Shown: piece after piece, positions 11,525 to 56,000 of the stretch | Numbering within the stretch: the stretch's first letter is position 1 | How the letters are laid out: each line of letters opens with the position of its first letter | Source of the DNA: Oculina patagonica | Taxonomy: Eukaryota | Assembly: GCF_052425735.1 (NCBI RefSeq) | Contig: NC_135770.1 | Span: 18,972,001 to 19,036,000 of the forward strand | Direction of reading: 5' to 3' | DNA: 64,000 nucleotides | Notes under the pieces: model-generated | Seen by the model: only the letters and a program-made list of their open reading frames with translations | Databases searched by the model: none | Told to the model about the DNA's origin: nothing | Made by a program: the position numbers and the translations under genes

Positions 11525-13585
11525 ATTTGGGGCCCTTGTGTTGATTCATTATTGCACCACGCAGATTAAAATATATTATTATCAATACACGCGGCCAAAT
11601 TGAAAACCGCCCTATTGAAAACACACGCTTTGCGGGCCGCAAATGACTCCTAGCGGACCGTTAATGCATTAACGGCCCTGCAGCTGATTGGTTCTCAGTT
11701 CATCATCCGATTAACTTTAACCAATCAGCGTCGCTGACGCGGGAAAAGCATTCAGGTGCGTACGTGTACAGCAAGAGTCTCGAACAGTTTTTCGACAAGC
11801 GAATATTGTGTTCGGTAGGAAAAATCAAAGTCTATTTGTTCTACGTAGGACAATTTGTGTCGCGTAGTGTCATTTGTGGCCCGAGCGCTTCGCGCTCGGG
11901 CCACAAATGACACTACGCGGGCGCAAATAAACAATATTCCCTCAAAAAGTCATTTTATTCCCTTATTATCACTCCATGCCAGTTTCAGTAAAACCGGCCG
12001 TTTTGAGACTTGAAATGCACAGTTTGGGACTTTTTGAATTATTCGCCAATACGTGGATTCATCCTTATGTTCACTCCAGGTCCAAAAGAATCTAAAAAGG
12101 AACGTGCTACATGAGCCACTGCAAATAACGATTTTGGACCTTGGGGTTAAAATAGCACCACGTAGACTAAATTATTTTTTACTACAGATCCAGCAAACCC
12201 GGTCATCACGTGGATTAATCCTTATTTTCACTTCAGGTTCAAAAGAATCGAATTAGAATTAGAGCCACTGAAAATGACGATTCGGGTCCTTGTGTTGAAA
12301 TGCCACCAAATAGATCAAAGCTTATTATCACTCCAGATCCAGCAAAACCGATCAGATTGAGATTTGAAATGTACTATTTGAGTCTTTTTGCAAATCCACC
12401 ATCACGCGGATTTATCCTAATTTTCACTCCAGGTCCACAAAAATCGACTAAAGAAATTGCTACATGGGCCACTGAAAATGTCAATTTTTGGCCCTTGTGT
12501 TGAAATACCGTAACGTTGATTTAAGCTTATTATCATCCCAGATCTAGCAAAACCGGCCACTTTGAGATTGAAATGTACAGTTTGGTTCTCTTTGCAAATC
12601 CGCCATCACGTGAAATTATAATAATTTTCACTCCAGGTCCAAAAAGAATCGACTAAAGAAATTGCAACATAAGCCCCTGAAAAGGTGGATTTTTGGCCCT
12701 TGTGTTGAAATACCATAACGTTGATTAAAGCTTATTATCACCCCAGATCTAACAAAAGCGACCACTTTGAGACCTGAAATGTACAGTTTGGGTCTTTTTG
12801 CAAATCCGCCATCACGTGGATTTATCCTAATTTTAATTTCAATCCAAGTTCAAAAGAATCGAGTAAAGAAAGTGCTACATGAACCCTGAAAATGTCGACT
12901 TTTGGCCCCTGTGTTGAAATACAATAACGGTGATTAAAGCTTATTATCACCGCAGATCTAGCAAAACCGGCCACTTTGAGACTTGAAATTTACCGTTTGG
13001 GTCTTTTTGCAAATCCGCCATCACGTGCATTTATCCTAATTTTCACTCCAGGTCCAAAAAGAATCGACTAAAGAAATTGCTGCAGGAGCCACTGAAAATG
13101 TCGATTTTGGGCCCTTGTGTTGAAATACCTTAACGTTGATTAAAGCTTATTATCAGCCCAGATCTAGCAAAAGTTGCCACTTTGTGACCTGAAATGTACA
13201 GTTTGGGTCTTTTTACAAATCCGCCATCACGTTGATTCATCCTTATTTTCACTCCAGGTCCAAAAAGAATCGACTAAAGAAATTGCTGCATGAGCCACTG
13301 AAAATGTCGATTTTTTGGCCCTTGGGTTGAAATACCATAACGTTGATTAATGCTCATTATCATCCCAGATCTAGCAAAACCGGCCACTTTGAGACTTGAA
13401 ATGCACAGTTTGGGTCTTTTTGCAAATCGGCCATCACGTGGAGTCATCCTTATTTTCATTCCAGGTCCAAAAGAATCGACTAAAGAAATTGCTACTGACA
13501 TGAGCCACTAATAATGTCGATTTTGGGCCCTTGTGTTGAAATAGCACAGCGTGGATTAAAGCTTAATTTCACCCCAGATCTAGAA
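11525..13585. repeat. ~206-bp satellite array, left part
   Basis: Unit aaagcttattatcaccccagatctagcaaaaccggcc... recurs at about 12320, 12525, 12730, 12939, 13145, 13352 and 13561; degenerate units extend left to ~11525. Confidence 0.92.
11585..11971. mobile_element. Non-autonomous palindromic element, Crypton-like, inserted in the satellite
   Basis: Bounded by the direct repeat ttattatca (11576-11584, 11963-11971). Perfect 28-bp hairpin 11861-11888/11892-11919 with a ttc loop. Family assignment is inference. Confidence 0.55.
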
Positions 13586-14956
13586 TAACCGGTATGCAAT
13601 GCATACTAAGGCGGTGACGCTCCAGTATAGCGAGTCAGTATGTTTGAAGCCCAGACAGAGGACTGAGAATAGACATTTTGGGCTTCGTTTGTTTGTTGTT
13701 CAATTTCAGACTATGTGATGTTACCCTTGAGAATTACTTCTTTCAAAATTAATAAAAAAAAATTCACAATAATTATTCAGATAGATAAAAGGAAACTCTC
13801 TAGGGAGCATCATGTGATTTGTAATAAAGCTAGTAAGGTCTACTGTTGTGAGTGAAAATGTGATTAAAGTTGATAGTTTAGAAACTGATTCATTTGCTGT
13901 AAAAGGGGAAAACGGGTTTGTCGAGTAAATAGAATTTTGCAATAAGTTGCTTTCGGGTGGTGTTCTTTATAAAGTTGTGCATTCCAAGGTAAGAATGTTA
14001 GTTTCTAACCAAAGTGAATAAAAAAAGGCAAATATTGAGCTGCTTTGATCACAAAATTGAAATTTTAATTTGTACAATTGTAACTGAATGTCTTTTATTA
14101 CAGTGGAATGCAACATAGTATGCAACTGTACTAGAAAGCCAGGAAGCAACCACAACTTGGCAGAAAAATACTGTCTTGAAATAATGTATCTTGATTAACT
14201 CTTGTTTAAATGCAGTTGATAGTTGTGATAAGTCCAATAAGTCCAAAATCTTGTTATTTAATTTTAGAGGTAATACACACAATACAAGTGAAGTCGGTCC
14301 AGGAAGTAAGGTTGATACAGTATCTTGATTTACCCTTGTTTAAATGCGGCTGATAGTTGTCTACAGTGACTGTACAATCAGTGGTGCAAGATACAAATGT
14401 ATGTCCAATAAGTCCAAAGTATTGTTATCACTGCAACATTTGGAGGTAATACACACATACAGTACAAGTGGAGTCCAGGAAGTAAAGTTGATACACCAGT
14501 GAGCCAGTGAAGAACTCCAATTGAAGGGTCTTTTCATTGGTTAATCTGAAGATGTTTAACACAGTTTCTTTTTAAATCCGTTGTTACTGCTACATGGTTT
14601 TAACTGTGTTGTTTGAATATAGCTGTCACTCATACTGAGGATTGGGCCTTTTATAACTGTATAAGTTCTAGCCAGTTCCAATGCAATGGGCACTTTACAT
14701 AGTGTCTCTTGACAAAATGTAGATTGAAAATGTTGGAATAATCAGCACATAACATGGCAGTCAGTGGATTCTCTGAAGACTGTATCTTGTGCATTTTCTT
14801 GTTGTTTTGCATTTTTGTTCTGTAAATATAATACAAGAAAAAAATCAATAGTTAAAAATATTAATAATTTTTTTAACAATAACTAATAGAGATGTACATG
14901 TAAATATTATGAGGTAACATATTAACATATATCACAACTACATGTACATGTTGATG

Positions 14957-15141
14957 CAGGGATGTCGCTAATGGACGGCTGCCGGCTAATTTCACCGGTT
15001 GAAAGAGGACTTACGGTAAATCCAGCTGAAATTTCACATGAAAACGAAGATTTAGATAAACTTTTAGAGCTACCAAGGCCATAAAAGCCAGCTGGGTTGT
15101 TGATAATGAGCTGGCTTAATGTTCTCTAAGCAACATCCCTG
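14957..15141. mobile_element. hAT-like MITE within the Helentron 3' region
   Basis: CAGGGATGTCGCT...AGCAACATCCCTG inverted ends; no clear TSD. Confidence 0.5.
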
Positions 15142-15465
15142 CAGATGTCAAATCAATAATTATCAACATACATGTGTAATTACATGGACCAAAACAAGAA
15201 ACAACTACATTGCGTACTGTATGTATACTTACCTTAAATGTACAGTTGCAATATGGTGGGTTTGTGACCCAAAGGGTGACAAGGATGGGTTTGTCAGTGA
15301 CCCAAAGGGTCACAAGGGACTCAAAAGAACCCCACAGATATATGTGCTAAGACACCAAGACTGATTAACTACAACACTTTTATGTAACACAAGTAGATAC
15401 TGAATTCAGTTAAATTTTCTTTCTTTCTGAAACACATACTTAACATGCAAATTATGCTTGTTTAA

Positions 15466-15641
15466 CCCTTTATTAAGACCCAAGAGTTACCACAACAAAT
15501 TTCTCCTCACAATGTCAATACTAAATCAAGAGAAGACCTGTTAGGAGAATTATCTATTAACAAATTCTCCAAACAATGCTATAAGAAAATGTATGAAAAA
15601 CAGTCAAGAGAATTTGTATGTGAATGATAGGGCTTAAAAGG
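15466..15641. mobile_element. Short TTAA-flanked MITE within the Helentron 3' region
   Basis: TTAA|CCCTTT...AAAAGG|TTAA. Confidence 0.55.
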
Positions 15642-15686
15642 TTAATCATTTACCAGTCATTATAGCCTACAAAAATGTACATGTGT

Positions 15687-18600
15687 CTACTCTTTTTTGG
15701 TTGCTATCCACACAGCTTTATGGTCACTAAAGTATGTCTCGAGAACTCCAGTTTGGACTCTTGATTCATTTAGATTTGTATAAATGTGATCAATTGTAGT
15801 TCTGTTATCAGTGGTGAAACCTGAAATAAGTTGTTTGTATCCATATGTTTCAATCATTTGAGTGTGTATACTGCTTTTTTGTACACCATTATTAAAATCA
15901 ATGTTAAAATCACCAAGTATTATATGAAAACGTTCTGTTGACATAAAGGAATGAAGTTCTCTTAATGCTTGAAGCAAATTTCTCGTTGACACTTTTGGTG
16001 ATCTATAAATTACAGCAATAACAACATCTGGCAGACATTTAACTTTAATTATTGTTATTTCAACTCCATGCATATTTTGGCATTTGGGATATCCATCATT
16101 ACATTGAGCTCTGGTAAAAACTGCAGTTCCATATAATGGTCTTTGTGTATGCAACTGCCTATCAAAAAAGGCGTCATTTCTAAACAGAGAGAAGTCATTG
16201 ATATTATATTCATCATTTTGGTCAAACACCCACAACCTAGTTTCAACAAAGATATTTACATCTGCTACCTTTATGTTAAAATCATTTTTCACATCTGATA
16301 TATGCTTGTGTAGTGAACGTGCATTTAGAAAAACAATCTTGACAAAATCATCACCAATGTCTTGAAGAGAAAATACAGATGTCTGAAGATAAGCCACTGT
16401 TCGCAATCTCTGCATTTCATTCTTAACTTTGTTACTCACAGTTATCTTTTTTTCATTGAGATTCTTTATATGCAATCCATCAATTGTGGTAACTCTACTT
16501 AATGCAACATAATGAATGTGGGGAATAGCTCGTCTTGAAGTAAGATCAACTACAACCTCAGTTTCAGTGTCACCCTGAGAACGGTGAATAGTTTTCCCTG
16601 CAGATGGCCGTAAAGGAAATTGTTTTCGAACGATTTGAGCAGCTTTACTTCTCCCTACAAAAAATGTCACACAAACAGGTTTTATTGGTGTCCATCCCTG
16701 CTGGATATTGTCACTGAAAAGGTGTCTATTTTCATTTCGAGTTTTCTCTCCGACTTTAGCATGATCAAATTCAACCCAAACAATTCCATCAGGACATTCA
16801 GAACTTAGGAGACTGATAAATCTCACTAAACCTGCACTACCATTTGTAAGCCCATCATCTAATCTGATGTTTTGACAGACTTCAATCCTTTCATTTTCTG
16901 CAATTGCAAGATGAGTTGCTAATTGCATAGTTTTTCGTGGATTATCTGGAACCTGTCTTAATAACCGTGCCTTTAACTCCTCAGACTGAGCACCAATGAC
17001 ACTGTCAACTGCCTTGACAATATATTTTTTACCTGCTGCAGAATTATAAACTGACCTGTTAAACTCATCAACACTGTCATTTTGGATGAATAGGTGTGGA
17101 GCGTGTCTGGGATAGTTCATAGAAGGATCTTCAATAATTCTTGCTCTTAGTATATTCAAGTCATTCTCAGTGTGAATGCCTTCACGTAGCCGATTAAGAA
17201 TTTCTGCAAACTGATGGCTTTCTCTTTGACGCATAATTTCATGCAATTCAAACATCTGAAAATGTTTCTGCCATAGATTAGCTGCTAAAGGGGCATAATC
17301 ACTCTCCAAATCTTCAAAAACATACCCGTCAAATACTGGCTGAAGTTGAAACAAATCTCCAATTGCTATAATACTCACTCCCCCAAAATCATTAGCTGTA
17401 CCTATGATATCTTGAAGTCTTTTGTTAATCTGAATATTGAACATAGAATTTCCTACCATTGATACCTCATCAATGAAAATTATCTTCAAACCAGCAAATT
17501 TGCATCTTAAGGAGTTCAAACGACTAGCATCAAGCTTCTTATAAATTTTTAAGGACTGGTTTGCAGGCACTCTTAATGCAGTATGGATTGTATTTCCTTG
17601 AATATTGTAAGCAGCTTTACCAGTTGGAGCAACAAGGACAGCTTTAATTTGATGAAAATCATCACCGGCTCTTGTATTTAAATATTTGTAAACTGCTTGA
17701 AACATCACTTTAGTCAAGTGAGACTTTCCAACTCCAGCACCACCAGAAAGAAACAAATAGAAAGGTTCATTAGTTGTCTTTACAAGGTGTAAAACATGGT
17801 AGAAAAATTGCAATTGCTCAACATTTAGAGAACGGACAGCTTCCCTATACTCTTCATCTGGCAATTCATCAAACCAGAAATTTTGTTCACGATTCTCACT
17901 ACTGGAAGGAATCCCCAGATCTTCAGAAAGATCATAGTTCCTAACTTCTTCTGTGTTGCATAAACGTTCCCTATCAGTTTCTGCAAGGTGATGTAGTTCT
18001 ACGTGTTGAGTATTTGGAGCTATGCAATCCCACATATCATCAGTGCATTCTACAGTTTGTACATCATCTAATACCTTGTCCAGTTGCTTACTACATGGTG
18101 CATACTGAGACATCTGATCATTTATCTGTTCAGTTAATCTCTGACAACGCTCCTTGTAAGTCTCAGAGTCACCAAGCAAATCAGTGTTTTCATCTCTCCA
18201 TGCAGTAAATAACATAAGGAGCTCACGATAGTGCTTTTCAGGGTTACTTTCTTTATTAAACCAAACACTTCTAATTACCCTAGCTTTTGACCGCTTCTGG
18301 GTTTGTTTGTGGTTCACTGTTTTCAAATCACTGCTAGTATCTGTACTAACCTCATCATCTTCATTATTGTCATGATCAAATATTTCTAACGGCAATCCAT
18401 CAACATCAGTATTGTTGCAACTCTGCAAGTTTTTCAGGTTTGATTTCATATTATTGTCATACCAAGCTGCCCAGTCAGCTAATGTCACATTCTCTAGGCA
18501 AGATGGCCTTTTGGTGTACCTTTTTATTAAGCCACCTGATTCAATGTCTTCTGACTCATCTTCTAGGAGCTGAATGTCATCAATTGATTTCAGAAGATGA

Positions 18601-20579
18601 ACTCTTTCATCTGGTAAAGCTGTATTAATAAATACCACTTCACGAGAAGAACGACGCATTGGTAACTGAAGTACAATATATACTGCCTCTTGTGCGCTTA
18701 TTTCAACACTGTTCAAGAATTTGTTACCAATGTCACGCACTTGCTGTTTAATACCCAAATTTCCTTCTCGAGCTTCCTCACATGCTTTTCTTAAAAGTTC
18801 ACTCATACCTCTTTGCGCCTTTGATATGTAAGAAACAACATACATCGCACAAGAATAGATATCTAAAATGAATTGAACATCCATGTTTGCTCTCCATGCA
18901 AGCAGGCAGTGCTTGTTGTAATTATTGATTCTAAGTTCATTTGGCTTTCTTTTCAAAAATATTGTTGCCCTACTTAAGGAAGATCTAATGGCTAGAATAT
19001 AGACCTCTTCTGTGACACCAAGCTTTTTGAGAAGTTCGTCAAATGAAATATCTTCTCCTTCCCTCATTGCATTAAGTTGCTCATTGATTTCTTCCCAAGT
19101 TGCTTTGTGCTCATCCAAAAGACTAATTTGGTCACTTTCACTTAAAGGATACAATATTCGAGTGCTTTTCATTGGAGGCTGTGGAAAATGAAACCTGCAT
19201 TTTTTCTCAAACCTTTTTTTACAAGTAAATGAATGTTTATGTTCCTGACGAGAAACTAATTCATCTAACTCACAACTGTTTCCAGGTTTTGAACAAGTGA
19301 TAATTTTATCAATAAAATTGCAAATTTTTTCATCTGAATCTTCACCAAACTTTGGTGCACCTTCAATCCATAAAAGCATATGTATATGTGGTGAGCCACG
19401 CTGTTGAAATTCAACGCGATAAAACCAATCTGCTATTTTTCCGAGAGGCGCACAATCACTATGCAAAAATTTAACAATAAATTGCTGAACTTGGAAGTCA
19501 AAATGTCTTGCACATGTGATAGGATCACTTTGTATTAACCTTGACTTTTCCTCCCATGACAATGCATTTAATTCATCATCACTGTATATTTTATGATCAG
19601 TCAATTCACCTAACATCCTTAACAGATGATTCCACTTTGTTTCAGCTGCAGAAAAGCTACAGAAAAGTGTTGCAGCTCCAAGTTGCCTTATCATGGCAAA
19701 TAAATCTTTCTTAGCCTTCTCAAAGTAGGGTGGTGAACCACGAAGAGCTCTCAGAAATCGGTAGCCTTCGTCCAAATGAACTAATTTGTCTAAAGCACCT
19801 TCTTTTTTTAACTCGCCTGCTGTTAGTCTCTTTCCTTTTGTTTTATGCTTTCGTAGAGCAATCTGGCATTTGCCTAATATTATTTTCATTTGCAGCTTTT
19901 TCAGTTTAAAAAAAATATTTTCGATACACTTAGCAACCCTGCGATCAGAACGCCTTAACTCTGATTTGCAAATGTCACTATAATACACAGGCACACTTCT
20001 TTCCTTATTATCTGCTCTTACTTTGCCATAGAATATCCCAGGATATGCTAGTTCTTCGCAATATTGGTCTTTAAACACACTTATTGGATGATTGCTTTCA
20101 CCTGGTGCAAAGTTCAAAACCTTTTCACGCTCACAATCTTCTACAAAGTCTGGGGATGTTAACATTGTATCCAAAGTACCAGCACACATTTCTGATTCAT
20201 CCACCTCATTCCAAGAATCTTCTTTTTCCCCTTCAGATTGAGTAGGGCAAGAATCCTTAGAAAAATCTCTGCTAGAAAAATGCAAATCTTTTCCACTACC
20301 TGAGCATCTTGATACATCCAAAGTCACTGGTATACCAACTAATGCTTTTAGACTAATAGGGTTTGCTGATCTATACCCTTTTGAACACACTTCTACAAGA
20401 ACAACATTTTGTGGCTCAAGAATTTTATATCTGAACAGTTTGATTACAGTGGAAGTACTTACATTAACTGCTGCTTTACTGAATTCAGTAGATAAGTCAT
20501 CTTCCAGTGGCAATAGATCATGTACAATGACCATGTGCTTTCTAAAAAGTGTTTGCTCTTTTTCCCAGGCACTACACAA
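15687..20579 (-). CDS. Helentron Rep/helicase/AP-endonuclease (continuation of the upstream ORF via a -1 shift)
   Basis: Rep motifs TLFCSFSAAE, YRVEFQQRGSPHIHMLLW (HUH), YVVSYISK (Y2). PIF1 motifs GGAGVGKS, IDEVSM, GDLFQLQPV, MRQ, TIHRSQG, YVALSRV. EEP endonuclease motifs NARSL, ET, IYRSP, GDFN, IDHIY, SDH. The ORF starts on TTG within a zinc finger, so it has no independent start. Confidence 0.95.
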   Translation of the reverse strand: MCSAWEKEQTLFRKHMVIVHDLLPLEDDLSTEFSKAAVNVSTSTVIKLFRYKILEPQNVVLVEVCSKGYRSANPISLKALVGIPVTLDVSRCSGSGKDLHFSSRDFSKDSCPTQSEGEKEDSWNEVDESEMCAGTLDTMLTSPDFVEDCEREKVLNFAPGESNHPISVFKDQYCEELAYPGIFYGKVRADNKERSVPVYYSDICKSELRRSDRRVAKCIENIFFKLKKLQMKIILGKCQIALRKHKTKGKRLTAGELKKEGALDKLVHLDEGYRFLRALRGSPPYFEKAKKDLFAMIRQLGAATLFCSFSAAETKWNHLLRMLGELTDHKIYSDDELNALSWEEKSRLIQSDPITCARHFDFQVQQFIVKFLHSDCAPLGKIADWFYRVEFQQRGSPHIHMLLWIEGAPKFGEDSDEKICNFIDKIITCSKPGNSCELDELVSRQEHKHSFTCKKRFEKKCRFHFPQPPMKSTRILYPLSESDQISLLDEHKATWEEINEQLNAMREGEDISFDELLKKLGVTEEVYILAIRSSLSRATIFLKRKPNELRINNYNKHCLLAWRANMDVQFILDIYSCAMYVVSYISKAQRGMSELLRKACEEAREGNLGIKQQVRDIGNKFLNSVEISAQEAVYIVLQLPMRRSSREVVFINTALPDERVHLLKSIDDIQLLEDESEDIESGGLIKRYTKRPSCLENVTLADWAAWYDNNMKSNLKNLQSCNNTDVDGLPLEIFDHDNNEDDEVSTDTSSDLKTVNHKQTQKRSKARVIRSVWFNKESNPEKHYRELLMLFTAWRDENTDLLGDSETYKERCQRLTEQINDQMSQYAPCSKQLDKVLDDVQTVECTDDMWDCIAPNTQHVELHHLAETDRERLCNTEEVRNYDLSEDLGIPSSSENREQNFWFDELPDEEYREAVRSLNVEQLQFFYHVLHLVKTTNEPFYLFLSGGAGVGKSHLTKVMFQAVYKYLNTRAGDDFHQIKAVLVAPTGKAAYNIQGNTIHTALRVPANQSLKIYKKLDASRLNSLRCKFAGLKIIFIDEVSMVGNSMFNIQINKRLQDIIGTANDFGGVSIIAIGDLFQLQPVFDGYVFEDLESDYAPLAANLWQKHFQMFELHEIMRQRESHQFAEILNRLREGIHTENDLNILRARIIEDPSMNYPRHAPHLFIQNDSVDEFNRSVYNSAAGKKYIVKAVDSVIGAQSEELKARLLRQVPDNPRKTMQLATHLAIAENERIEVCQNIRLDDGLTNGSAGLVRFISLLSSECPDGIVWVEFDHAKVGEKTRNENRHLFSDNIQQGWTPIKPVCVTFFVGRSKAAQIVRKQFPLRPSAGKTIHRSQGDTETEVVVDLTSRRAIPHIHYVALSRVTTIDGLHIKNLNEKKITVSNKVKNEMQRLRTVAYLQTSVFSLQDIGDDFVKIVFLNARSLHKHISDVKNDFNIKVADVNIFVETRLWVFDQNDEYNINDFSLFRNDAFFDRQLHTQRPLYGTAVFTRAQCNDGYPKCQNMHGVEITIIKVKCLPDVVIAVIYRSPKVSTRNLLQALRELHSFMSTERFHIILGDFNIDFNNGVQKSSIHTQMIETYGYKQLISGFTTDNRTTIDHIYTNLNESRVQTGVLETYFSDHKAVWIATKKE

Positions 20580-23065
20580 AGAACAAAAAAAAACACCACT
20601 TCATTACTATTACAGTCATTGTGATGGAATACTGGCAGGTAGTTACTCTCTTCACAACATTCACTATCAGTTTCTACTGCATGATCATACAACATATGAC
20701 TTTTTAATTTCATCCAGTCTATTAACACTTGTTCACAGTCAAGGCAAATAAAAACTTGACCACATTGAAATGGGAACAATCCACTATTTTGTGACAAAGA
20801 TTCTACATTGTTATTCAGTGACTCATTAGAAGCTACAGGTGCATTCATGTCTGCAACGTTGCTTGAACTGCAGCAAGGTCTATCATTAATTGTGTCATTT
20901 TCCTTACACCCTGTAAACAAATCATTCCAATCTGGGTTAAGTTTGATGCCTTCTTGTTGATATAGTACACCATTTTCAGTCAGCCATTCAGCTGCTTCAA
21001 AAACTTTGGATGGTCTTATGTTTTGAGATAGGACGTAGTTTTTGTATTTTAATTTTCTCTTCAGTTGCACTTTGATAGTCTCTGTTTCAGACGAAAGTCT
21101 TGGTAAAATAGTTACAGTATTAACAACATCAGCAGGAACATTTACTATGTTGGCATGGATTTTGAACTGCTTTCCTCTAGCTGCTTCATGTATCTTTTGA
21201 AAGATCAACCGTGGTGATACAAGTCTCCATTCTAGTTCTGTCAAGTCTAAATGGTCAGGTTTAGATGGAAAATTCATTTTATTTTGGACTGCACATGGAG
21301 GAACTTTATTTTGCTTTAGGTGTTTATAACACGTATTACAAACCCATTGAGCTGTACAACAGTGCTCACTTATTTTTATGCATTTTAGCACAGCTTCATT
21401 ATCAAGTTTTAGTACAGTTTTAACTCTAACAACACTATGTTTGTACCATAACTGATCGCAACATGTGCAGACAAATGTTGGCCCTGTAGCAACCAGTTCA
21501 CGAAAAATGGTAACTAGCTCATCGCAAGACATTTGGTTTTGGTGACCTTTTCTTATTGTATAGGCTTCTCTCCTTTTTCTCAACCGTTCTTCTTTCTGTT
21601 GCTTTGTTTCAGTTTCTTTTGCTTTTCTTCGGGATTCTCTCTTTTTCTTTAGTCTCCTTTCTCGTTGTTCATTGCTTTCAGTTTGCTTGTTTTTCTTCAA
21701 CCTATTTTCTTTCTGCTGCTTGGTTTCAGTTTCTCTTTTTTTTCTGATAAGTTCCCGATGCTTCCTTAACCTATTCTCTCTCTGTTCTTTGCTCTCGGTT
21801 TCCTTTTTTTTAATTCTTTGTTGCCTACACTTTCTTAACCTATTCTCTCTCTGCTCCTTGGTTTCAGTTGCTTTTCTTTTTAAATACTTTTCCCTGTACT
21901 TTTGTGACATACTATCCCCTTTACTTTCAGTTTCAGTGCTAATTCTTTTGACTTTCTTTTCTCCAAATGTAAGTAGGCTTTCTATGTGTTCTTCTGATTT
22001 TTCTTGTTTTCTCTTCCTGCTATTAATGCCATCATTTTCTTGTGAGCTACTTTCTGTTTCCCATTCTAAATTGTGACATTGACTGCATGACTCCTTACAT
22101 CCTACGGTATTGTCTCGTACGGTAAATTGTTGACTGCAAGTACTTGTGAAACTTCTGTAATTATCAAGTGACAATTTTTTAACTTTAATACCCAAGACTT
22201 CATAAGGGATTACATTCTTTTCTTTGTAAAAGTGTTGAAGATACTGCACTGTTTCCTCTATACTGGTAAACTCCAACAGTATTGCTGTTCCATTTGCAGA
22301 AAGATTACCATAAATGTCTCGTGAATGGGAATCAAAAATTCTATAATGACCTTTGTTGTCAATAAAAATAGCAACTGTATTGATTTCAATAGTCAACAGA
22401 AACGCATCATAATCTTTTATTAAAATCATTAATGCATGTTGTAGTGGTACAAAATAGTCTCTAATATCAGACATGTGCAAATCACCTGCAAAGCTTTCAC
22501 TGAAATTAATGGAAAAGTTTTCATCATTAATGGACAATGCAGAAGGAATCTCAGATAACAACAGAAAGTCTTTTCTTGCTGAATTACTTAGATGAGAATA
22601 AAGTACATTGCCTTGAATCAATACTTCATTCAGCTGATCTCTAGACCACGATGCATTAATTTTATAATTGTAAACAACTGCAGTTAGGCACATCGCTACG
22701 CATTGGTTGCCAGCATTGCTTCCAAACAGTGCAACATCACCTTGATGATAGTCAGCCGTGACAGTTTTAGACGAATCTACAGCGAACAAAGGCCCAGGAT
22801 TCGTTTCCACATCATTGGCAAGTCGAATCAACAGGGGAATATAAAAACGATACAAACACATTTGGGTAAACCAAAGTCTTGCATAATAAGTCATTTGCCA
22901 CGAGCGGATTACTCTTTTTAGTGTAGGAAGATATATCGCTTCCATGTAAAACATAAACAACAGCATAGACCAGAATTTCCCTCTCATACGATTTGAATAT
23001 TCTTTGGCCTTTAAGTAAATGTTATGTAGCCCCACAACCGCTCTATATTGCATTAAAGACACCAT
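20459..23065 (-). CDS. Helentron polyprotein N-terminal part: 2A motif, herpes tegument-type (C76) cysteine protease, STPR-like repeats, DUF6570-like zinc domain, C2H2 finger
   Basis: LLIRLANDVETNPGP (aa 78-92); YHQG..F..NAGNQCVAMCL with FDSH; repeated ETKEQRENRLRK units; CTCCDQLWY..VCNTC..VP..LEWRLVSPR..NIVNVP; CLDC-x12-H-x4-H. Confidence 0.88.
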   Translation of the reverse strand: MVSLMQYRAVVGLHNIYLKAKEYSNRMRGKFWSMLLFMFYMEAIYLPTLKRVIRSWQMTYYARLWFTQMCLYRFYIPLLIRLANDVETNPGPLFAVDSSKTVTADYHQGDVALFGSNAGNQCVAMCLTAVVYNYKINASWSRDQLNEVLIQGNVLYSHLSNSARKDFLLLSEIPSALSINDENFSINFSESFAGDLHMSDIRDYFVPLQHALMILIKDYDAFLLTIEINTVAIFIDNKGHYRIFDSHSRDIYGNLSANGTAILLEFTSIEETVQYLQHFYKEKNVIPYEVLGIKVKKLSLDNYRSFTSTCSQQFTVRDNTVGCKESCSQCHNLEWETESSSQENDGINSRKRKQEKSEEHIESLLTFGEKKVKRISTETESKGDSMSQKYREKYLKRKATETKEQRENRLRKCRQQRIKKKETESKEQRENRLRKHRELIRKKRETETKQQKENRLKKNKQTESNEQRERRLKKKRESRRKAKETETKQQKEERLRKRREAYTIRKGHQNQMSCDELVTIFRELVATGPTFVCTCCDQLWYKHSVVRVKTVLKLDNEAVLKCIKISEHCCTAQWVCNTCYKHLKQNKVPPCAVQNKMNFPSKPDHLDLTELEWRLVSPRLIFQKIHEAARGKQFKIHANIVNVPADVVNTVTILPRLSSETETIKVQLKRKLKYKNYVLSQNIRPSKVFEAAEWLTENGVLYQQEGIKLNPDWNDLFTGCKENDTINDRPCCSSSNVADMNAPVASNESLNNNVESLSQNSGLFPFQCGQVFICLDCEQVLIDWMKLKSHMLYDHAVETDSECCEESNYLPVFHHNDCNSNEVVFFFVLCVVPGKKSKHFLESTWSLYMIYCHWKMTYLLNSVKQQLM
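22790..22843 (-). other. 2A-like ribosomal-skipping (StopGo) peptide
   Basis: YIPLLIRLANDVETNPG/P fits the D(V/I)ExNPGP consensus with a hydrophobic upstream tract. Confidence 0.85.
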
Positions 23066-23676
23066 GATCTACGATATCAATGCAAACAAAAACTTCAGAT
23101 GGCTCACCTTTCAATTGCAATCTTTGCAGTCTCAGCAGTTTTCACGAAGGAGATAAACTTCCTGTCTTTACTTCAAGCTCAAAGTCACTAAGGTCGCCAA
23201 TATTTCAGTTCACAGTTATTTCAATTCTGACAATTCTGACAATGCTCAAATTGCTCAACAGTGCTCAATCAGTTGAACTGACAGTAGCCTGTTCCAGGCT
23301 AAACTGACAGACAAGGGTCCTGCCAAAATACAGTAGCACTCACCAACACGTAAAAGCGTTTTAAAAACCAAATTTAATGTAGACCCTTGACCTGTCGCGT
23401 TTGCGAGTAAGTCGATTTTGTATGTATGCACGACAAGTTCTGAAAGAGTTTGTAAGTGAGTGCAAAAATATAACAACTACGTACAAGTCTAAGTCGAAGC
23501 TTCTCAATTTCACCAAACAGCAAAACCCCCACAATCAAGATGGCGGATGGCAAAGAAATGAAGGAAACAATAAATCACGTGACCCATTATGCTTAGTTCC
23601 CAGTGCTACTCGGTTGGAGTAATCTCTCCTCACACGGCCGTCCACCGGGCCATAGCATATAGGCGTCTCCGCCTAA

Positions 23677-24620
23677 AAACCGGCCACTTTAAGACTTAAC
23701 ATGAATAGCTTGGCTCGTTTTGCAAATCGCCTATCACGTGAATGCATCCTAATTTTAAACCCAATTCCAAAATATTCGAATAATAAAGTGCTCTATGATC
23801 TATACAGAAAAGGACGTTTTTCCGCCCTTTCTGTTAAAATACCGCCACGTAGATTAAAGCTTATTTTCACTCCGCATTTAGCAAAAACAGCCAGTTTGAG
23901 ACTTGGCATGTACAGTTTGGGTCTTTTTGCAAATCCGCCATTGCGTGGATTCATCCTAAGTTTCACTCCAGGTCCAAAAAACGACTAAAGAAATTGATAC
24001 ATGAGCCACTGAAAAAGTCGATATTTGGCCCTTGTGTTGAAATACCATAACGTTGATTAAAGCTTATCATCACCCCAGATCTAGCAAAAGCGGCCACTTT
24101 GAGACTTGAAATGTACATGTACAGTTTGGGTCTTTTTGCAAATACGCCATCAAGTTGATTCATCATTATATTTACTCCAAGTCCAAAAGAATGGAATAGG
24201 AGAGTGTTACACGAGCTACCGAAAATGACGATTTTTGGGCTCTTGTGGTGAAATACCATAACGTTGAATAAAGCTTATTATCACCCCAAATTTAGTAAAA
24301 CCGGCCACTTTGAGATTTGAAATGTAAAGTTTGGGTCTTTTTTGCAAATCCGCCATCACGTGGATTCATCATAATTTTCAATCCAGGTCCAAAAAAATCG
24401 ACTAAAGAAATTGCTGCATGAGCCACTGAAAATGACGATTTTGAGCCCTTGTGATGAAATACCTTAACGTTGATAAAAGCTTATTATCACCCCAGATCTA
24501 GCAAAAGTGGCCACTTTGAGACTTGAAATGTACAGTTTGGGTCTATTTGAAAATCCTAATTTTCCCTCCAAGTCCAAAAGAGTCGAATAAGAAATTGCTA
24601 CATGATCAATTGAAAATGAC
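23677..24620. repeat. ~206-bp satellite array, right part (about 4.5 units)
   Basis: The same unit resumes at aaaccggccacttt directly after the Helentron end. Confidence 0.92.
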
Positions 24621-28566: not shown

Positions 28567-31500
28567 ATGTCTTCCATTTTAATGTTGTGTGGTATGTTCT
28601 TTCTTTCGTCTGTGATACCACAGGCCGACGGTTCAGTAGGTAAGTTTCTACTAAAACGTTTAACGACATTTTATGTACGAATATTTCTTGTTTTATCTAA
28701 CCTTTTATGCTAGGAATTCAAACATATTTGAGTCATAACTTGTTTCTCACTAATGGCGACTAAAATGCCTAACCGAATTCCGAACTAGAATAGTGCTTGT
28801 TGACAAAAGTGGTCTTATTTCATTTGTTATACTTGATTATTTTGTTAAAACCTAACTAACAGTAGAGAAATAAGACAGAAGAATCAATATTTAAAATTAT
28901 AAATCAAACCAAATTTGGATTTCATCGGGGTTTAGCGAATGGAATATAAAAGACTCAAAATTTAAGGCAATATTTTTTTAGCAACTGAGCAGAATATACT
29001 TCAATAAAGGGGGAAACTTTCATGAGCCATATTACATCCATCTCAATATGCAACATAATAATAAAATATCTATGTCCCCACAACCCCGAAACTATGTTTA
29101 TATCATTGCTATAATGAGGAGCGTTTTTTATCGTCAATTATATTTATGTAGTCGTTGTTGAGCTCTCTAGTACCATTTAAGATAAAACTGGGTATGAAGT
29201 ACCTGAATCAGAAATTTCAATTCATGCATTGATTTTCTTTCTTAAATCGGGAAGAAAAATAGGTTTAGTTCCATCTCCCATTGCTCAGAGATAATTTTTA
29301 GCTGGGCAACAGAACGAAACTGTAAGTCTCTTAACAGGTGATTTCCGTTAAATAATATTCGTTTTTGCTTTTGCGCAAAGTAAAGTTCATTAGTATATAT
29401 ATGTTGCTTGTCAACCCCCATGCCATGCCATGCCATGCCATGCCATGAAATTCCATGAAATACTATGTCACGCCATGCCAGGCAAAGTAATTGAACCAAA
29501 TTTGAAACGGCATGTAATTGTTTAGCAAGCTTGGTGTTGCCAAGTCAATCGCGTTTCGACAGCCATGCTCTACCACATTTATTTGCATATTCCCATTTAC
29601 TTATCGAAATTATATTATCTCTGTATACATTATGGCTGCGTTTTCTTCATTTTTTTTTTTACCTTGTAAAGTAAAGCCGGACTCTTAAGATGGCAGATCC
29701 CAAGACAACAGCAGTTCAGAAATAATTTGATGATCCATGTTAGGATTGATGAAAGGCGGGAGACTAAACAGGGTGATTTCACTGAATAACAAGGATTGTG
29801 GACGAAATGTTTTTTTTTCCTTTTTTCTTTAGACCAGTGCCGTAATTTGGAGTTTAGAACAGCCCAAGTGTTCGAGGGTAAACGTTTGATCAACCACATG
29901 ATTCACAGCGCCGACGTCTTGGACAATGAATTTTGCGGTGCGCTTTGCTACATGGAACCCAACTGTTTCAGTTATAATTTGTTTGCGAAAGATGAAACTG
30001 AAAAACTCAAATGTGAATTGAATAATGCTACCCACGAAGGGCACGAGGAAGACCTGAACGAATATCCAAATTATATATACCGTGGAGCTAAGGTAAGTGA
30101 GAGTCAGAAAACAGGATTCATACAAAACTTTAACGTTCTCATAACGGGACACTTTAAGCGGATACTTTTTTCTGATTACAATGGTGTCCAGTCGCTTACG
30201 AGAGGCTCGACTGCACCGAAAGGGAGTCTTCGGCACAAGCAGAATTCCCAAATTCTCCCACTCATTTTGCTAAAGGTTTCCCACAATCTGCACTTATTGA
30301 CTGAGTGCGATCCGAGGGCCGGAAGGGAAAATATTTGGGTCAAGGTCTGGAATTACAGATCAAGTACAGCGTGGTCTGTGCGTCCTGACTAAAGGCAAAA
30401 CATTTTGTAGTACGACCTGACGCAACTCAGCCAATAAGCATTTTAACGGACTGTAGAATGATACTGATACTACTATAATATATGATCAAATGCTTTCAAT
30501 TTATTATCGTGGCAGAAGCGTGGCCGTAGGCTTTCCTAATAGAGCCGGAAGGCTTTTTCCGAACGACGTCAACACGTCCTGCCATACATACGTCAGTTAT
30601 ACGTCATTATGGTTTCATTTCTATTATGGTTACGTAAGCGGGGTCGTACGTACGTGTCTATATGGTAATGATTATGTGTGTGAGTTACAGTTGTTACATT
30701 GTCTTGCCCCATTAGAGGCACATGTTGCCAGGTGCATTCGTGTTAAAAAGTTTATAATCAGTTTTTGTGATCATAATCTCCCTCGCAGCCGTTTTAGTGT
30801 CGTCATGCAACGATCCTCCCCACAAACGGCTGCTCACATTCGAACAACATTTCGTTTCCATTTGTTTCTTATGTGACCAATCACAACACAGGAGATTGTA
30901 ATCAACATGTTTGTTCCCGCGAATTCGGTTGTTTCAGAGAAGAACATTCGATGCGTTCCCAAAACGTTTGCAGTGTTTTTCAACGGAACCAAAAAAAGTG
31001 GTGCAATTCCATTACAAAATATTTTTTTTTTAAACATTGTCAATGACAATGCGTTCGATATTCAACGAAATCACAGAGCATTTAGAATCATTCACGGGAC
31101 TGTTGTGCCAGCTTTAAAAATTCTCTTCAGCGTATTTTAAACCCACTTGCATCATTAATTTCGTTTTGAATTTGGAGCAGAAAATACACAGCGTATTCCT
31201 GTAATTTTGCGGCGTTGAATGAAATCATGCTCCCATGTACTTCGCACGCGCGCAACAAGTTCTGATGATAAATAAATTTTATTCCGCTGCCACAACTCTC
31301 TATAACTGGTGCCGATTAAACAATTCTGCGGTTAAGTTATCAAAAAGGGCTTCACTTCGCTGACCGTTGGAATAAAACAGCATAACAATAAAGGGCGCAA
31401 ACTTTTATCTTTAAGCTTATTTAGCAACGGTTCCGACATGCAGCGCTACATTGTCTGGCGTGTCTGCTATGTATAAATTTAATATTTTTCTGAAAAGATC

Positions 31501-44859: not shown

Positions 44860-46572
44860 GATCCTAGGCGGATGTTTGTGCTTGGGCTTAGCCCGAGCAC
44901 AAACAGCCTCCTAGGATCTACGGTCAGCCTAAGATACACAAACCAAATATACCATTGAGACCTATTGTATCGTGTATAAACACCTTTGCTTATGAATTGT
45001 CGGCTCATTTAGCTGACATCCTGTCCCCACTGACAGGCAAATCAGAGTACGCAGTTACCAACTCTACTCATTTCGTGAATACCATCAACCGTGAAAGAAT
45101 TCAAGAAAAGGAAATCATGGTATCATTTGACGTAGAATCTTTATTTACGAACGTGCCAATCGAAGACGCCGCAAAGGCCGCACTTCGCAAACTAGAAAAC
45201 GATCCCGGTCTTGCCGACCTCACAAACCTAACACCTACACAAACTGCCGACCTTTTAAACTTTGTTTGACGATCCACTTATTTCCAATACAATGGATCAA
45301 TTTACGAACAAAAGGACAGAGCCGCTATGGGGAGCCCTGTCTCCGCGGTTATAGCCAACATCTTCATGGAAGACTTTGAGGAGCGTGCGATAGCAAGTGC
45401 GATCTACAAACCGAAGATCTGGAAGCGATATGTAGATGACACTTTCACTATATTAGATCGAAACCAAGTCGACGGCTTTTTACAACATCTTAATAACCAA
45501 CAGCCCACTTTTCGTTTTACCATGGAAACCTGGAAAGATAACAGCATTCCCTTTCTCGACACGTCAGTTATAAGGGACTCAAACGGTCGTCTTACTACCA
45601 GTGTGTATAGAAAGCCCACACGCACCGATCAGTACTTAGCCTATGACTCACACCATCCTCAGTCAGTGAAGCGTGGTATTGTTAAGTGTCTATATCACCG
45701 AGCCAAACACCTCATAACAAAACCATCAGTTATCTCTCAAGAAAAAAAAAAACATTTATCGTCGGTCATTGTTTCTAACGGTTATCCTTCTTCGTTCATA
45801 CGAAAACTTACTAAGACCACAAGACCAACAGCCGACAACGAACCTACGCAGGAATTTAAAACTACTGCGGTTTTACCCTATATCAAAGGTGTATCAGAGG
45901 TTCTTCGCCGCTGCCTACAAGAACAAGGCGTTCGCACCGTCTTTAAATCTGACACCACTCTTCGGCCTTACTTAGTACGACCGAAAGACGCCCTAGAACC
46001 AGGCAAACAAGATAGTGTTGTATACAAAATTCCATGTGAATGCGGCAAAGTATATATAGTGGAAACAGGGAGAACGATGCAAGACAGAATTAAAGAACAC
46101 GACAAAGACACAAGGCTTGCTCATACACAAACCCCCGCAGTTTCGGAGCACGCAAACGAAACGGGGCATATTCCTTTATGGAATCAAGTCAAGTTTATCG
46201 ATCGTGACCCTCACCGATACACACGCAGGGTCAAAGAGGCTATCCAAACAAGACTTAATTCTACTAACATCAATACAGATAGCGGAATTGAAATTTCTGA
46301 AGCATGGATACCTACGATCAGAAAGCATAACAGCTGTTCAACTACAAAGCGGACCTCTGAGGGAACATCATCTGTTAGTCGGAATAATAATAGGGATCGA
46401 AATGCACCAATCACAGCGAACCAACGTGCATAAATAACGACGCGTATACAATCGACCTCATCGCCTGATGAAGACTAGCAGTATAGCAGTCGAAACGTCG
46501 CGATCAACATCTCAAAGCAATTCTATCGTGAGACAAACGATAAAACGTTCATTACCTATCTTACACCACGGT
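44860..46572 (+). mobile_element. Penelope-like retroelement, 5'-truncated and frameshifted
   Basis: RIYGQPKIHKPNIPLRPIVS, SFDVESLFTNVP, MGSPVS, RYVDD, then GIY-YIG (VVYKIPCECGKVYI.ETGR). Frameshift near 45265. Short 5' inversion 44860-44888/44890-44918. Confidence 0.92.
46460..46504 (+). ncRNA. Minimal type I hammerhead ribozyme of the Penelope pLTR
   Basis: aucgc-CUGAUGA-agac(uagcaguauagca)guc-GAAAC-GUC-gcgau, just 3' of the ORF stop. Confidence 0.82.
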
Positions 46573-53000: not shown

Positions 53001-56000
53001 TATTTTGGTCTGTGTGTTGCTGTATTTTGTTATCTATTTAAGTCCTAAGTACCTTTAAAATTTATCTAATTAAATGCTAAGGATCGCTGCCCAATCTCCT
53101 CAGCACACAATGGTTATTTTGGGCAGCCATTCATTTAATTTATTTTTATTCTCTTTGTACAGTAAATTTAATTTAATTTAGGGTGCAAATGAAGTGTTGT
53201 GGTTGGTTGTTGTGTTGTGTATTGTGTTAAATACTTCTCTTTAGAGGAACAATGTTGAAATTAGCCATGTGTTAATATGGCAACCTGGATAACTGCTGAG
53301 CTGATATAGCTTATCACCTCTAGCGGCTCCAGTGACATACACATAGCTATAGCTATTGTGTCTTTCTAGATCAAAATGCTATCTGGAAACTATTATTTTA
53401 GACATTTTCCATGACACGCACACACACAGCGAAGTGCAAGGCAAATAAGTTCAACAGCACTCGCATATATTGCTGCTACATACAGCTGGTCTTGCACCCA
53501 CATAGAATGACTTCTTGATAGGACATTGCAGCGTCAGCACCATATCGGTCGCCATGTTTTCTTGCTGAACGTCCAGTCCCATTCTTCTGGGTGGGATACC
53601 TTGTTTCGTCTATCAGATAAAGATGTTGATTATCGAGGTTGCCTCCGTGATTCTGGCAACCAATATTGCGTTTGGAAAACAATGGACAATGTTTTTTCGG
53701 GGCGACTTGACAGCTGGTCTTGCAGCCACATAGGATGAGCTTTTGACAGGACATTTCAGCGTCAGCCAGTGTGCACCATATCGGTCGCCATGTTTTCTCG
53801 CTGAACGTCCAGTTCCATTCGTCTGGGTGGGATACCTTGTTTCCTTTGTCAGATTAAGATGTTGATTATTAAGGTTGCCTCCGTGATTCTGGCAACCAAT
53901 ATTGCGTTTGAAAAAAAACGAATGGCAATTTGTTCGGGGCGATTTGAAGTTCGGCTGTTTCTTTCCTACACCAAATTGACAGGTCTCCTCAAATGAATTG
54001 CCCAGCTCCTCTATTATTGTTGACACCAGGGGTCTGACATGATCCTTAAACTTTTTTTTACTTGCATTGAAAGTGTTCGTGATGAGCACCATGCAGGTCT
54101 TGTGTTCATCACTATTTTCAAAATTTTTAACCAACCTCGCTAGTTCAGGCCCAGATACCATCCACCTTAGCAACACACTTGGATTCGCTGTTAGGCTTTT
54201 TGTCCCGCCGTCCTCTTAGATGAACTCAAATTGTATAGGCATCGTGGTTTCTTTCTAACTTCTCCACGTGGAAATCAAATCAGCTTCTCCCTAATTTAAT
54301 TCTTCTCCGCTCTCTTCCTGCTGTAGTGATCTAACTTGTGACAGAACTTCAACCCATCCACTGCCAGCGAGCAAGGTCCCGAAAGCCTTTAGTGCCGCTT
54401 GCTCGATGTGGAGACCACCAAGCATGACTTCCAGTTTATCTTCCCATGTACGATCCTTCAGCGCCCACTGTTTTTGCTAAACCAAAGAGCGGCTGATCGT
54501 AACAAATAACCACGGATTTACGTACTCTACGGCTTTGCAAATGGCAGTTAAAGCGTGACTTATCATCGCCTCGAAATGAGTGCAATCCAAAAAAGGCAGT
54601 AGAGAGCTTTTACACTTTTTACACTTTGGGGATACTAGCTGTATGGTGTTTGCACGAACAATTTGGTTCCTCTATGTAGCTGTTTTCCCCTAAAAGAAAC
54701 AGATTTTCCAGTCGTATTATCTGGTTACAGCGATGCATTTCCTTCTCTTTGCTTTCTTTTCTACTCCAACGTTTTCAATTTGGTAGTAGTTTAATACTTT
54801 ATTATTACTTATTTTCGCAGGACTTAATTTTTGCGATTTTAAAAAAAACGCAAAATTAAAGAACGGCAAAAAAATTATTTATAAAGATTTTTATTTAAAG
54901 TGCCTATGAAGTAAAAAATAATTAATGCTCATTTGAAAGACTTTTACAAATAAAGAAGAATGGCGTTTACCGTTTTGAAATATCTTCTTTCGTTTAGGAG
55001 ATATTCACGTTTTTGTGTTATGCAAATGAGGAAAGTGATGACGTCATAAATTGTTCCACTAAAAGATAGATCACAAAATCAAGGATATCTCTATAAAGGT
55101 GATATTTCTGAAACTTGGCATCAGTATTGACCTTCCTTAAAGGTGCAAGATGGCTCATACTATGACGTAACCATGGCAACACTCTTGGTTCCAGGCTCTT
55201 TCTGACATAAACCAAATATCTCAATTTGCAACCCTTTATAGTGGAACAGAGGGTCCAGCTTGGAACACACATAATGCCCTATTACCCTAATTCTCCTCAT
55301 AAGCTTGTTGGGGGTGGATCATCTTTGATTAAGCAAAAACTGGGGATATCAGTATTAACTAAAATAGGTATTTGCAGCAAAACTGTTGCCATGGGAACGG
55401 TACGACAGGTGTCATTTTATGTCTTTTGTGGTGTACATTAATCGTGCCAAGTTTGAAGAACTCAGCTCAAATATTTCAAGAGATATTCTTGATTCAATGC
55501 TTCATCTTTTTGTGGAACAATTAATGACGTCATCACTTCGCTCATTTGCATAATATAAAAACGTAAATATCTCTAAAACGAAAAAAGATATTGCAAAAAG
55601 AAAAACGCCATTCTTCTTTACTTTGAAAAGCCTTTAAAATAAACAGCAATTACTTTTTACTTCATAGGCACTTTAACGTATTTTTTGGCCAATGTGCGAA
55701 TTATAAGTTCAGCGAATCGAATATACTCGTTCCATTTTCGCGAAATTAAGTTCCCGCAATATGGTACGTGGCACAATCTATCCCATGAGGCACTGTGCCT
55801 CAAACGCGTCTCAGCAATTCTCATTCCTAAATCTGGCTCCGCTAAGTCGATGTGAAGTTCTTTAGTCTCATAAAAACTCTGCAAATCCTTTTCAAGGGTG
55901 AAATATCCAGCAGCACAGTTGCTCCGTTTCGAGTTTGCTGGGCATTCTTTCTCCTCGCTTGTATGTTCTTAGCAAAACATACGCATTTGCTTCAGCTTTT

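Follow-up and report, generated by a model that had tools for sequence, protein, structure and literature searches.

A frameshifted Helentron copy in Oculina patagonica with a 2A-like motif in front of a predicted deubiquitinase

The Helentron, its reading frames and its domains

The window analysed here, a stretch of 64,000 nucleotides of Oculina patagonica (contig NC_135770.1, positions 18,972,001 to 19,036,000), contains a whole Helentron (HLE2) of approximately 10.1 kb at 13584..23679. Coordinates are those of the window, and the element and all features described within it lie on the reverse strand. The preliminary description had recognised a rolling-circle Helentron at 15687..23065, and this identity is borne out by the Pfam domains, the Rep diagnostics and the termini. 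The extent given there corresponds to the coding part of a larger element.

According to the comparison of copies the 3' end is located at 13584, the similarity to the siblings ending at 13581-13585 in 17 of the 20 extended copies, and the 5' end at about 23679, where a T run is followed by AGGCGG. The 5' subterminal inverted repeat (10 bases, 23665..23674) reads AGGCGGAGAC in this copy and AGGCGGTGAC in most siblings, and the 3' subterminal inverted repeat (10 bases, 13609..13618) reads GTCACCGCCT. These short terminal repeats were revealed by the copy comparison and were not among the 25 longest inverted repeats of a general scan. A 3' palindrome 8 bases from the element end (13592..13606) is predicted to form a hairpin stem, with a z of only -1.9. 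The element is inserted into a tandem array of 206-bp units, the left part of which lies at 12204..13592 and the right part at 23676..24556. Put together, the flanks restore one 206-bp unit, so that target duplication is absent. Subterminal inverted repeats, a 3' palindrome, T-rich ends formed by T runs and the lack of a target duplication are the terminal features of Helentrons/HLE2. The 3' non-coding part of the element also contains an internal duplication (14229-14495), which is found in the siblings as well.

Since the closest siblings of this copy share 97% identity with it and the members of another, very young subfamily (L032, L033, L034, L037 and L039), which are distributed over several chromosomes, are 99.8-99.9% identical to each other over the frame, the Helentron family moved recently. 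Run labels and named matches indicate stony corals and an octocoral.

The coding part of this copy is divided into two overlapping frames. Frame 1 (20459..23065, 868 aa including a tail that is out of frame) encodes the leader, the 2A-like motif, a deubiquitinase (DUB) of the VTD type, repeats, DUF6570 and a first C2H2 finger; frame 2 (15687..20600, 1637 aa from stop to stop) encodes a second C2H2 finger, Rep, PIF1 helicase and AP endonuclease. They are separated by a copy-specific +2 frameshift in a run of nine T (20585..20593), which doubles as the pyrimidine tract of a splice acceptor at 20572. The two extra T are absent from all 14 other aligned copies, and the span minus these two bases comprises 2458 codons. 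A single frame from leader to endonuclease (2470-2724 aa) is present in seven of 32 sibling copies fetched from the same genome; other copies break at different places. The single reading path of about 2459 aa proposed earlier thus fails for this copy, which lacks the one intact frame of an autonomous element, and holds for the family: because seven siblings keep one frame and the extra T are specific to this copy, the claimed architecture is that of the family.

In principle both frames could be joined by programmed -1 frameshifting in the run of T, since T TTT TTT has the form of a slippery heptamer and the offset between the frames is -1. However, the missing +2 in the other aligned copies, the siblings with one frame and the breaks elsewhere in other copies contradict this explanation, which was rejected as hardly credible. 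The contigs resemble the siblings, which have the shorter form of the T run, rather than this copy. The frameshift is either a real mutation or an assembly error.

Domains were called by a Pfam profile scan applying the curated cut-offs. The leader (22793..23065, 91 aa), for which no Pfam family was matched, is predicted to be helical with two moderately hydrophobic stretches (maximal hydropathy 1.34) and ends, as had been described, with the 2A-like core DVETNPG/P at aa 85-92 (22790..22813), preceded by LLIRLAN. The herpes tegument-like VTD follows at 22181..22789, assigned by Pfam (Herpes_teg_N, E-value 2.8e-14), fold and catalytic residues. The QC..FDSH cysteine protease seen previously in the sequence was recovered with QC at aa 121-122 and DSH at aa 245-247.

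STPR-like repeats of 23 aa, which differ in copy number between subfamilies, are located at 21557..21871, and a pair of CxxC...CxxC motifs together with DUF6570, a marker of HLE2, at 20933..21469 (E 1.5e-15). C2H2-like fingers with a CxxC...HxxxH pattern lie at 20681..20746 and 20520..20585. In frame 2 an HUH-Y2 Rep (FYRVEFQQRGSPHIH; YVVSYISK) at 18819..19844 (Helitron_like_N, E 2.4e-26) is fused to a PIF1-like helicase at 16494..17828 (E 1e-21), and an AP-type endonuclease (15711..16331) forms the C-terminus of the same frame, which is the arrangement of Helentrons. The Rep diagnostics F-Y-R and the S in RGSPHxH, characteristic of Helentrons like DUF6570, are present (WFYRVEFQQRGSPHIH). All these domains had been named in the preliminary description. 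Pfam confirmed DUF6570, Rep and helicase, whereas three profile matches fall below the curated cut-off: the endonuclease, in which the motifs N, E, GDFN and SDH are present (Exo_endo_phos, E 3.3e-4), the STPR-like repeats (E 0.023) and the two fingers (zf-C2H2, E 0.57, for the first). The proposed likeness to a viral polyprotein is limited, since one 2A would give two products instead of many pieces and this copy is frameshifted.

Elsewhere in the window, a frame of 387 aa at 45270-46433 (+) contains reverse transcriptase and GIY-YIG-like motifs and is presumably Penelope-like. Two further frames of 200 aa each were detected at 29790-30392 (+) and 53613-54215 (-).

The predicted deubiquitinase and the 2A-like motif

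The best PDB match of the VTD by both sequence (E 3.7e-11) and fold (Foldseek E 2e-17, rmsd 2.1 for the predicted model) was 8ADD, identified as the VTD of a zebrafish Helentron in the available text of PMC9741609; the next match was the cytomegalovirus enzyme. The catalytic triad is intact, with C122, D245 and H247 aligning with C322, D451 and H453 of DrT1-VTD2. E173 furthermore aligns with E377 of DrT1-VTD2, the D376 of which aligns with a serine here. The fold of peptidase C76, set beforehand as a refutable part of the claim, was thus found by Herpes_teg_N and the match to 8ADD, together with the Cys plus Asp-x-His triad of VTDs. In the sections available, PMC9741609 describes Helentron VTDs from vertebrates, insects, cnidarians and molluscs, with a crystal structure and assays of K48/K63 cleavage; it demonstrates the cleavage of ubiquitin conjugates for the zebrafish homologues and proposes that the VTD shields from proteasomal turnover. 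The VTD at this locus is a predicted deubiquitinase of this known Helentron type and not a new one. As to whether the architecture is undescribed, the VTD DUB, DUF6570 and endonuclease of Helentrons are published as far as the available text of PMC9741609 and PMC11417382 goes, and the position of a 2A before the DUB is apparently unpublished.

Of 33 copies in the genome, 28 have an intact DVE(T/M/V)NPGP and three an altered one, whereas in two the motif was not found. Judged from the substitutions, the leader and the motif are under purifying selection, the dN/dS against sibling L025 being 0.14 over the leader and, with few sites, 0.09 over its last 22 residues. A profile search with the leader gave 351 clusters, and the strict core is present in 53 of the 88 listed matches that reach the motif. 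The core D(V/I)ExNPGP and a conservation far above chance are those of a 2A. The residue before the core D departs from the usual G or H, being N in 96% of the leader-profile matches, yet G or H is described in the literature as a preference and not a rule. Among 49 of the 150 listed leader matches Pfam detected a VTD or OTU in 12, STPRs alone in one, two stray domains and no retroelement domains. In one gene model (P0004) the leader, 2A and VTD are fused to a reverse transcriptase, which probably reflects a chimera of nested elements in the gene call.

Helentrons of the OTU type in the same genome (L103-L109), five of seven of which have one intact frame, share the leader and 2A, the DUB being swapped directly behind the motif. 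The identity between the VTD and the OTU family in this genome amounts to 68% for the leader and 81% for the 2A, compared with 56% for the Rep core, 46% for the helicase and 40% for the endonuclease; synonymous sites are saturated, and the likeness of leader and 2A may derive from an exchange of modules.

The relation of the motif to the DUB was surveyed in proteins found by the Rep region alone. Of 1090 long proteins the best 120 were taken; 45 of these carry the motif (43 in its strict form), each of them once, where shuffling expects 0.03. The motif occurs in 45 of the 56 proteins with a DUB and in none of the 64 without, a non-independent count in that the carriers represent two Rep clades and one single protein. 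Among the DUB-less proteins it is absent from all 24 that have long N-termini; the other 40 have short, probably truncated N-termini. In the 45 carriers the motif precedes the cysteine of the DUB, by 30-34 residues in the case of VTD and mostly by 26-46 in that of OTU, and G stands before the core in 32 of them. The cysteine motif of the DUB lies at most 61 residues from the called start in 10 of the 11 motif-less DUB proteins. Upstream of the motif the carriers have the 91-aa leader (nine), an unrelated basic module (34) or, once, another sequence. The basic module (e.g. P0185, P0192 and P0221) has a conserved REPSR...P.SS motif and is unrelated to the 91-aa leader by BLAST.

A search with the 2A-OTU region added 13 proteins, six with and seven without a 2A. 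In four of the latter (P0417, P0418, P0419 and P0422) LKGG lies upstream of the OTU cysteine at a distance of 33-37 residues; we take this sequence to resemble the C-terminus of ubiquitin and the sites of viral papain-like proteases. What these proteins have in common is a likely separation site ahead of the DUB, LKGG being an apparent substitute for the 2A in the 2A-less branch.

Reporter data on related peptides are provided by the preprint of Snell and Matreyek (2026), in which 20-mers were screened in HEK293T cells and classified by machine (PMC13405545, supplement 3). As far as its available text shows, the classes reached 86% accuracy on the training data, and fall-off was grouped with the inactive peptides. 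Related rows were assigned by similarity; nine of the ten rows containing IRQA were among those listed. The 20-mer of an Acropora protein with leader, 2A and VTD (XP_044182051.1, curated there as a DNA helicase whose structure matches a VTD) is identical to the present peptide at 16 of 20 positions and was classed as fall-off. Among the rows listed, none of eight related N-type 20-mers with an intact core was classed as skipping, three as fall-off and five as non-skipping. One of three with a damaged core, a D-to-A variant, was classed as skipping, which indicates noise in the classes. Three G-type 20-mers identical to survey proteins at 18-20 of 20 positions were classed as skipping, fall-off and reduced protein, respectively, six other rows being left out as not clearly Helentron. 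Among these rows the G-type relatives scored better than the N-type ones (skipping in 1/3 versus 0/8).

The motif might act as an efficient StopGo of the viral kind, which would skip cleanly in coral cells and deliver the leader, with a job of its own, and the DUB-led transposase in a 1:1 ratio. The core fits D(V/I)ExNPGP exactly and is placed behind a Leu-rich helix, selection acts on the leader over its whole length and other peptides with N before D were classed as skipping in the rows available from PMC13405545. Furthermore, the 20-mers may under-report, because full activity of the FMDV 2A requires more than 30 native residues according to the part of PMC12846837 at hand. Against this, not one of the intact related 20-mers was classed as skipping, and we consider efficient StopGo rather unlikely. 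Of the earlier 2A reading, the conserved motif at a fixed position stands, whereas the 20-mer data of the relatives lean against clean skipping.

Even less probable, though not negligible, is that the N-type motif no longer recodes and is kept for the fold of the leader, for its function as a linker or as the target of a protease, so that the protein would remain whole with the leader as a tether. The five of eight related peptides classed as non-skipping, the N as a fixed, family-specific change and the two hydrophobic predicted helices of the leader agree with this explanation. However, the same core also occurs where the upstream part is an unrelated basic domain, it is followed by OTU in some proteins and by VTD in others, and the motif region is predicted to be unstructured, which does not suggest a role in folding. 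Because of the missing skipping among the N-type 20-mers and the mixed reporter classes, we prefer a weak, throttling recoding over clean skipping.

Splicing and the output of the transposase

Contigs point to a second transcript with two GT-AG introns. The first (20572..23107) takes out the start codon, leader, 2A, VTD and DUF6570, and is followed by a 109-nt exon within the transposase frame (20463..20571) and by a second intron of 5643 nt (14820..20462), which takes out Rep, helicase and endonuclease. The joint from 23107 to 20572, the short side of which covers less than 30 bases, was found in four of four runs and the joint from 20462 to 14820 in two of three; the RNA status of these runs is a guess, none being on record as RNA, and the contigs show joints, not levels. 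The joints listed for the DNA run include neither of the two, and one contig covers all three exons. Among the aligned copies the donor at 23107, the acceptor at 20572 and the donor at 20462 are kept in 15/15 and the acceptor at 14820 in 14/15.

The spliced form encodes at most a peptide of 49 aa or somewhat more, the end of which differs by subfamily. The possibility that the 3' region holds a protein-coding gene of its own was rejected, as the first exon contains no in-frame start codon and there is only this short, subfamily-variable peptide. An AG just before the start codon, kept in 15/15 copies, could close a short 5' intron of the transposase mRNA (23069-23107), for which no joint is listed in the contigs. 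In 7/7 of the OTU-type elements L103-L109, AAAG/GTAAG or GAG/GTAAG, similar to the donor described here, lies upstream of the start codon at a distance of 44-90 bases. The NCBI gene model P0003 ends with EQKCKTTR, corresponding to the exon after 14820 in another frame, which suggests an isoform of leader, 2A, VTD and DUF6570 without Rep and helicase. The conserved splicing is likely a second brake on the output of the transposase.

In our view the locus holds a coral Helentron of a recently active family, disrupted by a frameshift in this copy, in which the 2A-like motif probably acts on the ribosome, detaching the leader and limiting the amount of the DUB-led Rep/helicase/endonuclease. The data directly show the element ends, the domains and the intact siblings, that leader and motif are under selection and that the motif goes together with the DUB. 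The ribosome would pause at NPG, release the leader and resume only part of the time, so that the motif would serve as separator and throttle at once. By analogy with the fish homologue, the N-terminal DUB might remove K48/K63 ubiquitin and protect the transposase from turnover, and splicing from the donor 42 bases before the start codon would bypass the enzyme as a whole.

More tentatively, and with more doubt than confidence, a processing similar to that of RNA viruses may be envisaged for this widespread group of coral Helentrons. The DUB-led transposase would always be freed from exchangeable proteins upstream of it, by a 2A skip or, in another branch, by a cut of the element's own DUB at the ubiquitin-like LKGG; the DUB directly behind the stall signal would undo the ubiquitin response provoked by stalling, and splicing would be the off switch.

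Comparison with known systems

Taken together, a known Helentron with a known DUB is described here, which has in addition a strongly conserved and apparently unpublished junction of a 2A before the DUB and a candidate splice switch. The 2A-then-DUB junction recurs with either of two DUB types, behind either of two upstream modules and in two Rep clades, LKGG being its apparent substitute. It offers a testable handle on the role of Helentron DUBs, which is a guess in the VTD paper as far as available (PMC9741609). The element furthermore supplies a natural N-type variant of the 2A and, in its splicing, a candidate for a switch that controls transposase output in reef corals.

In the openly accessible papers searched, 2A recoding was not found to be described for Helitrons or for any other DNA transposon, and no link between 2A and Helitrons appears in the available parts of PMC3708506, PMC12338488 and bioRxiv 10.64898/2026.09.24.754024.

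The closest known systems are the zebrafish DrT1/DrT2 (Erven et al. 2022, PMC9741609), which share the VTD with Cys plus Asp-x-His, RepHel, the C-terminal AP endonuclease and the occurrence in cnidarians. In contrast to the element described here, neither a 2A nor a leader is mentioned in the available text of that report, in which "skipping" occurs 0 times. Subgroup b of HLE2 as defined by HELIANO (PMC11417382) has Herpes_teg_N and EN in common with it, as well as DUF6570 as the HLE2 marker; its accessible text mentions no 2A and places STPRs mostly in HLE1. The Helentrons of PMC4067079 share the subterminal inverted repeats, the 3' palindrome, the T-rich ends and the FYR and GSP diagnostics, but that report, as available, likewise mentions no 2A. 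The eukaryotic 2A-like screen includes a close relative of the present peptide from the Acropora protein with leader, 2A and VTD, whereas, as far as available, the tie of such peptides to Helentrons and DUBs is not drawn there and neither the main text nor the four supplements searched contain the word "Helitron" (PMC13405545).

The 2As of APE-type non-LTR retrotransposons, the activity of which varies and for which a throttling role has been proposed in the part of PMC3708506 at hand, resemble the present motif in that one DxExNPGP is located near the N-terminus of a single long mobile-element frame. They differ from it in that the element described here is a DNA transposon, in which the motif stands before a DUB and not before an endonuclease, with N in place of G before the D.
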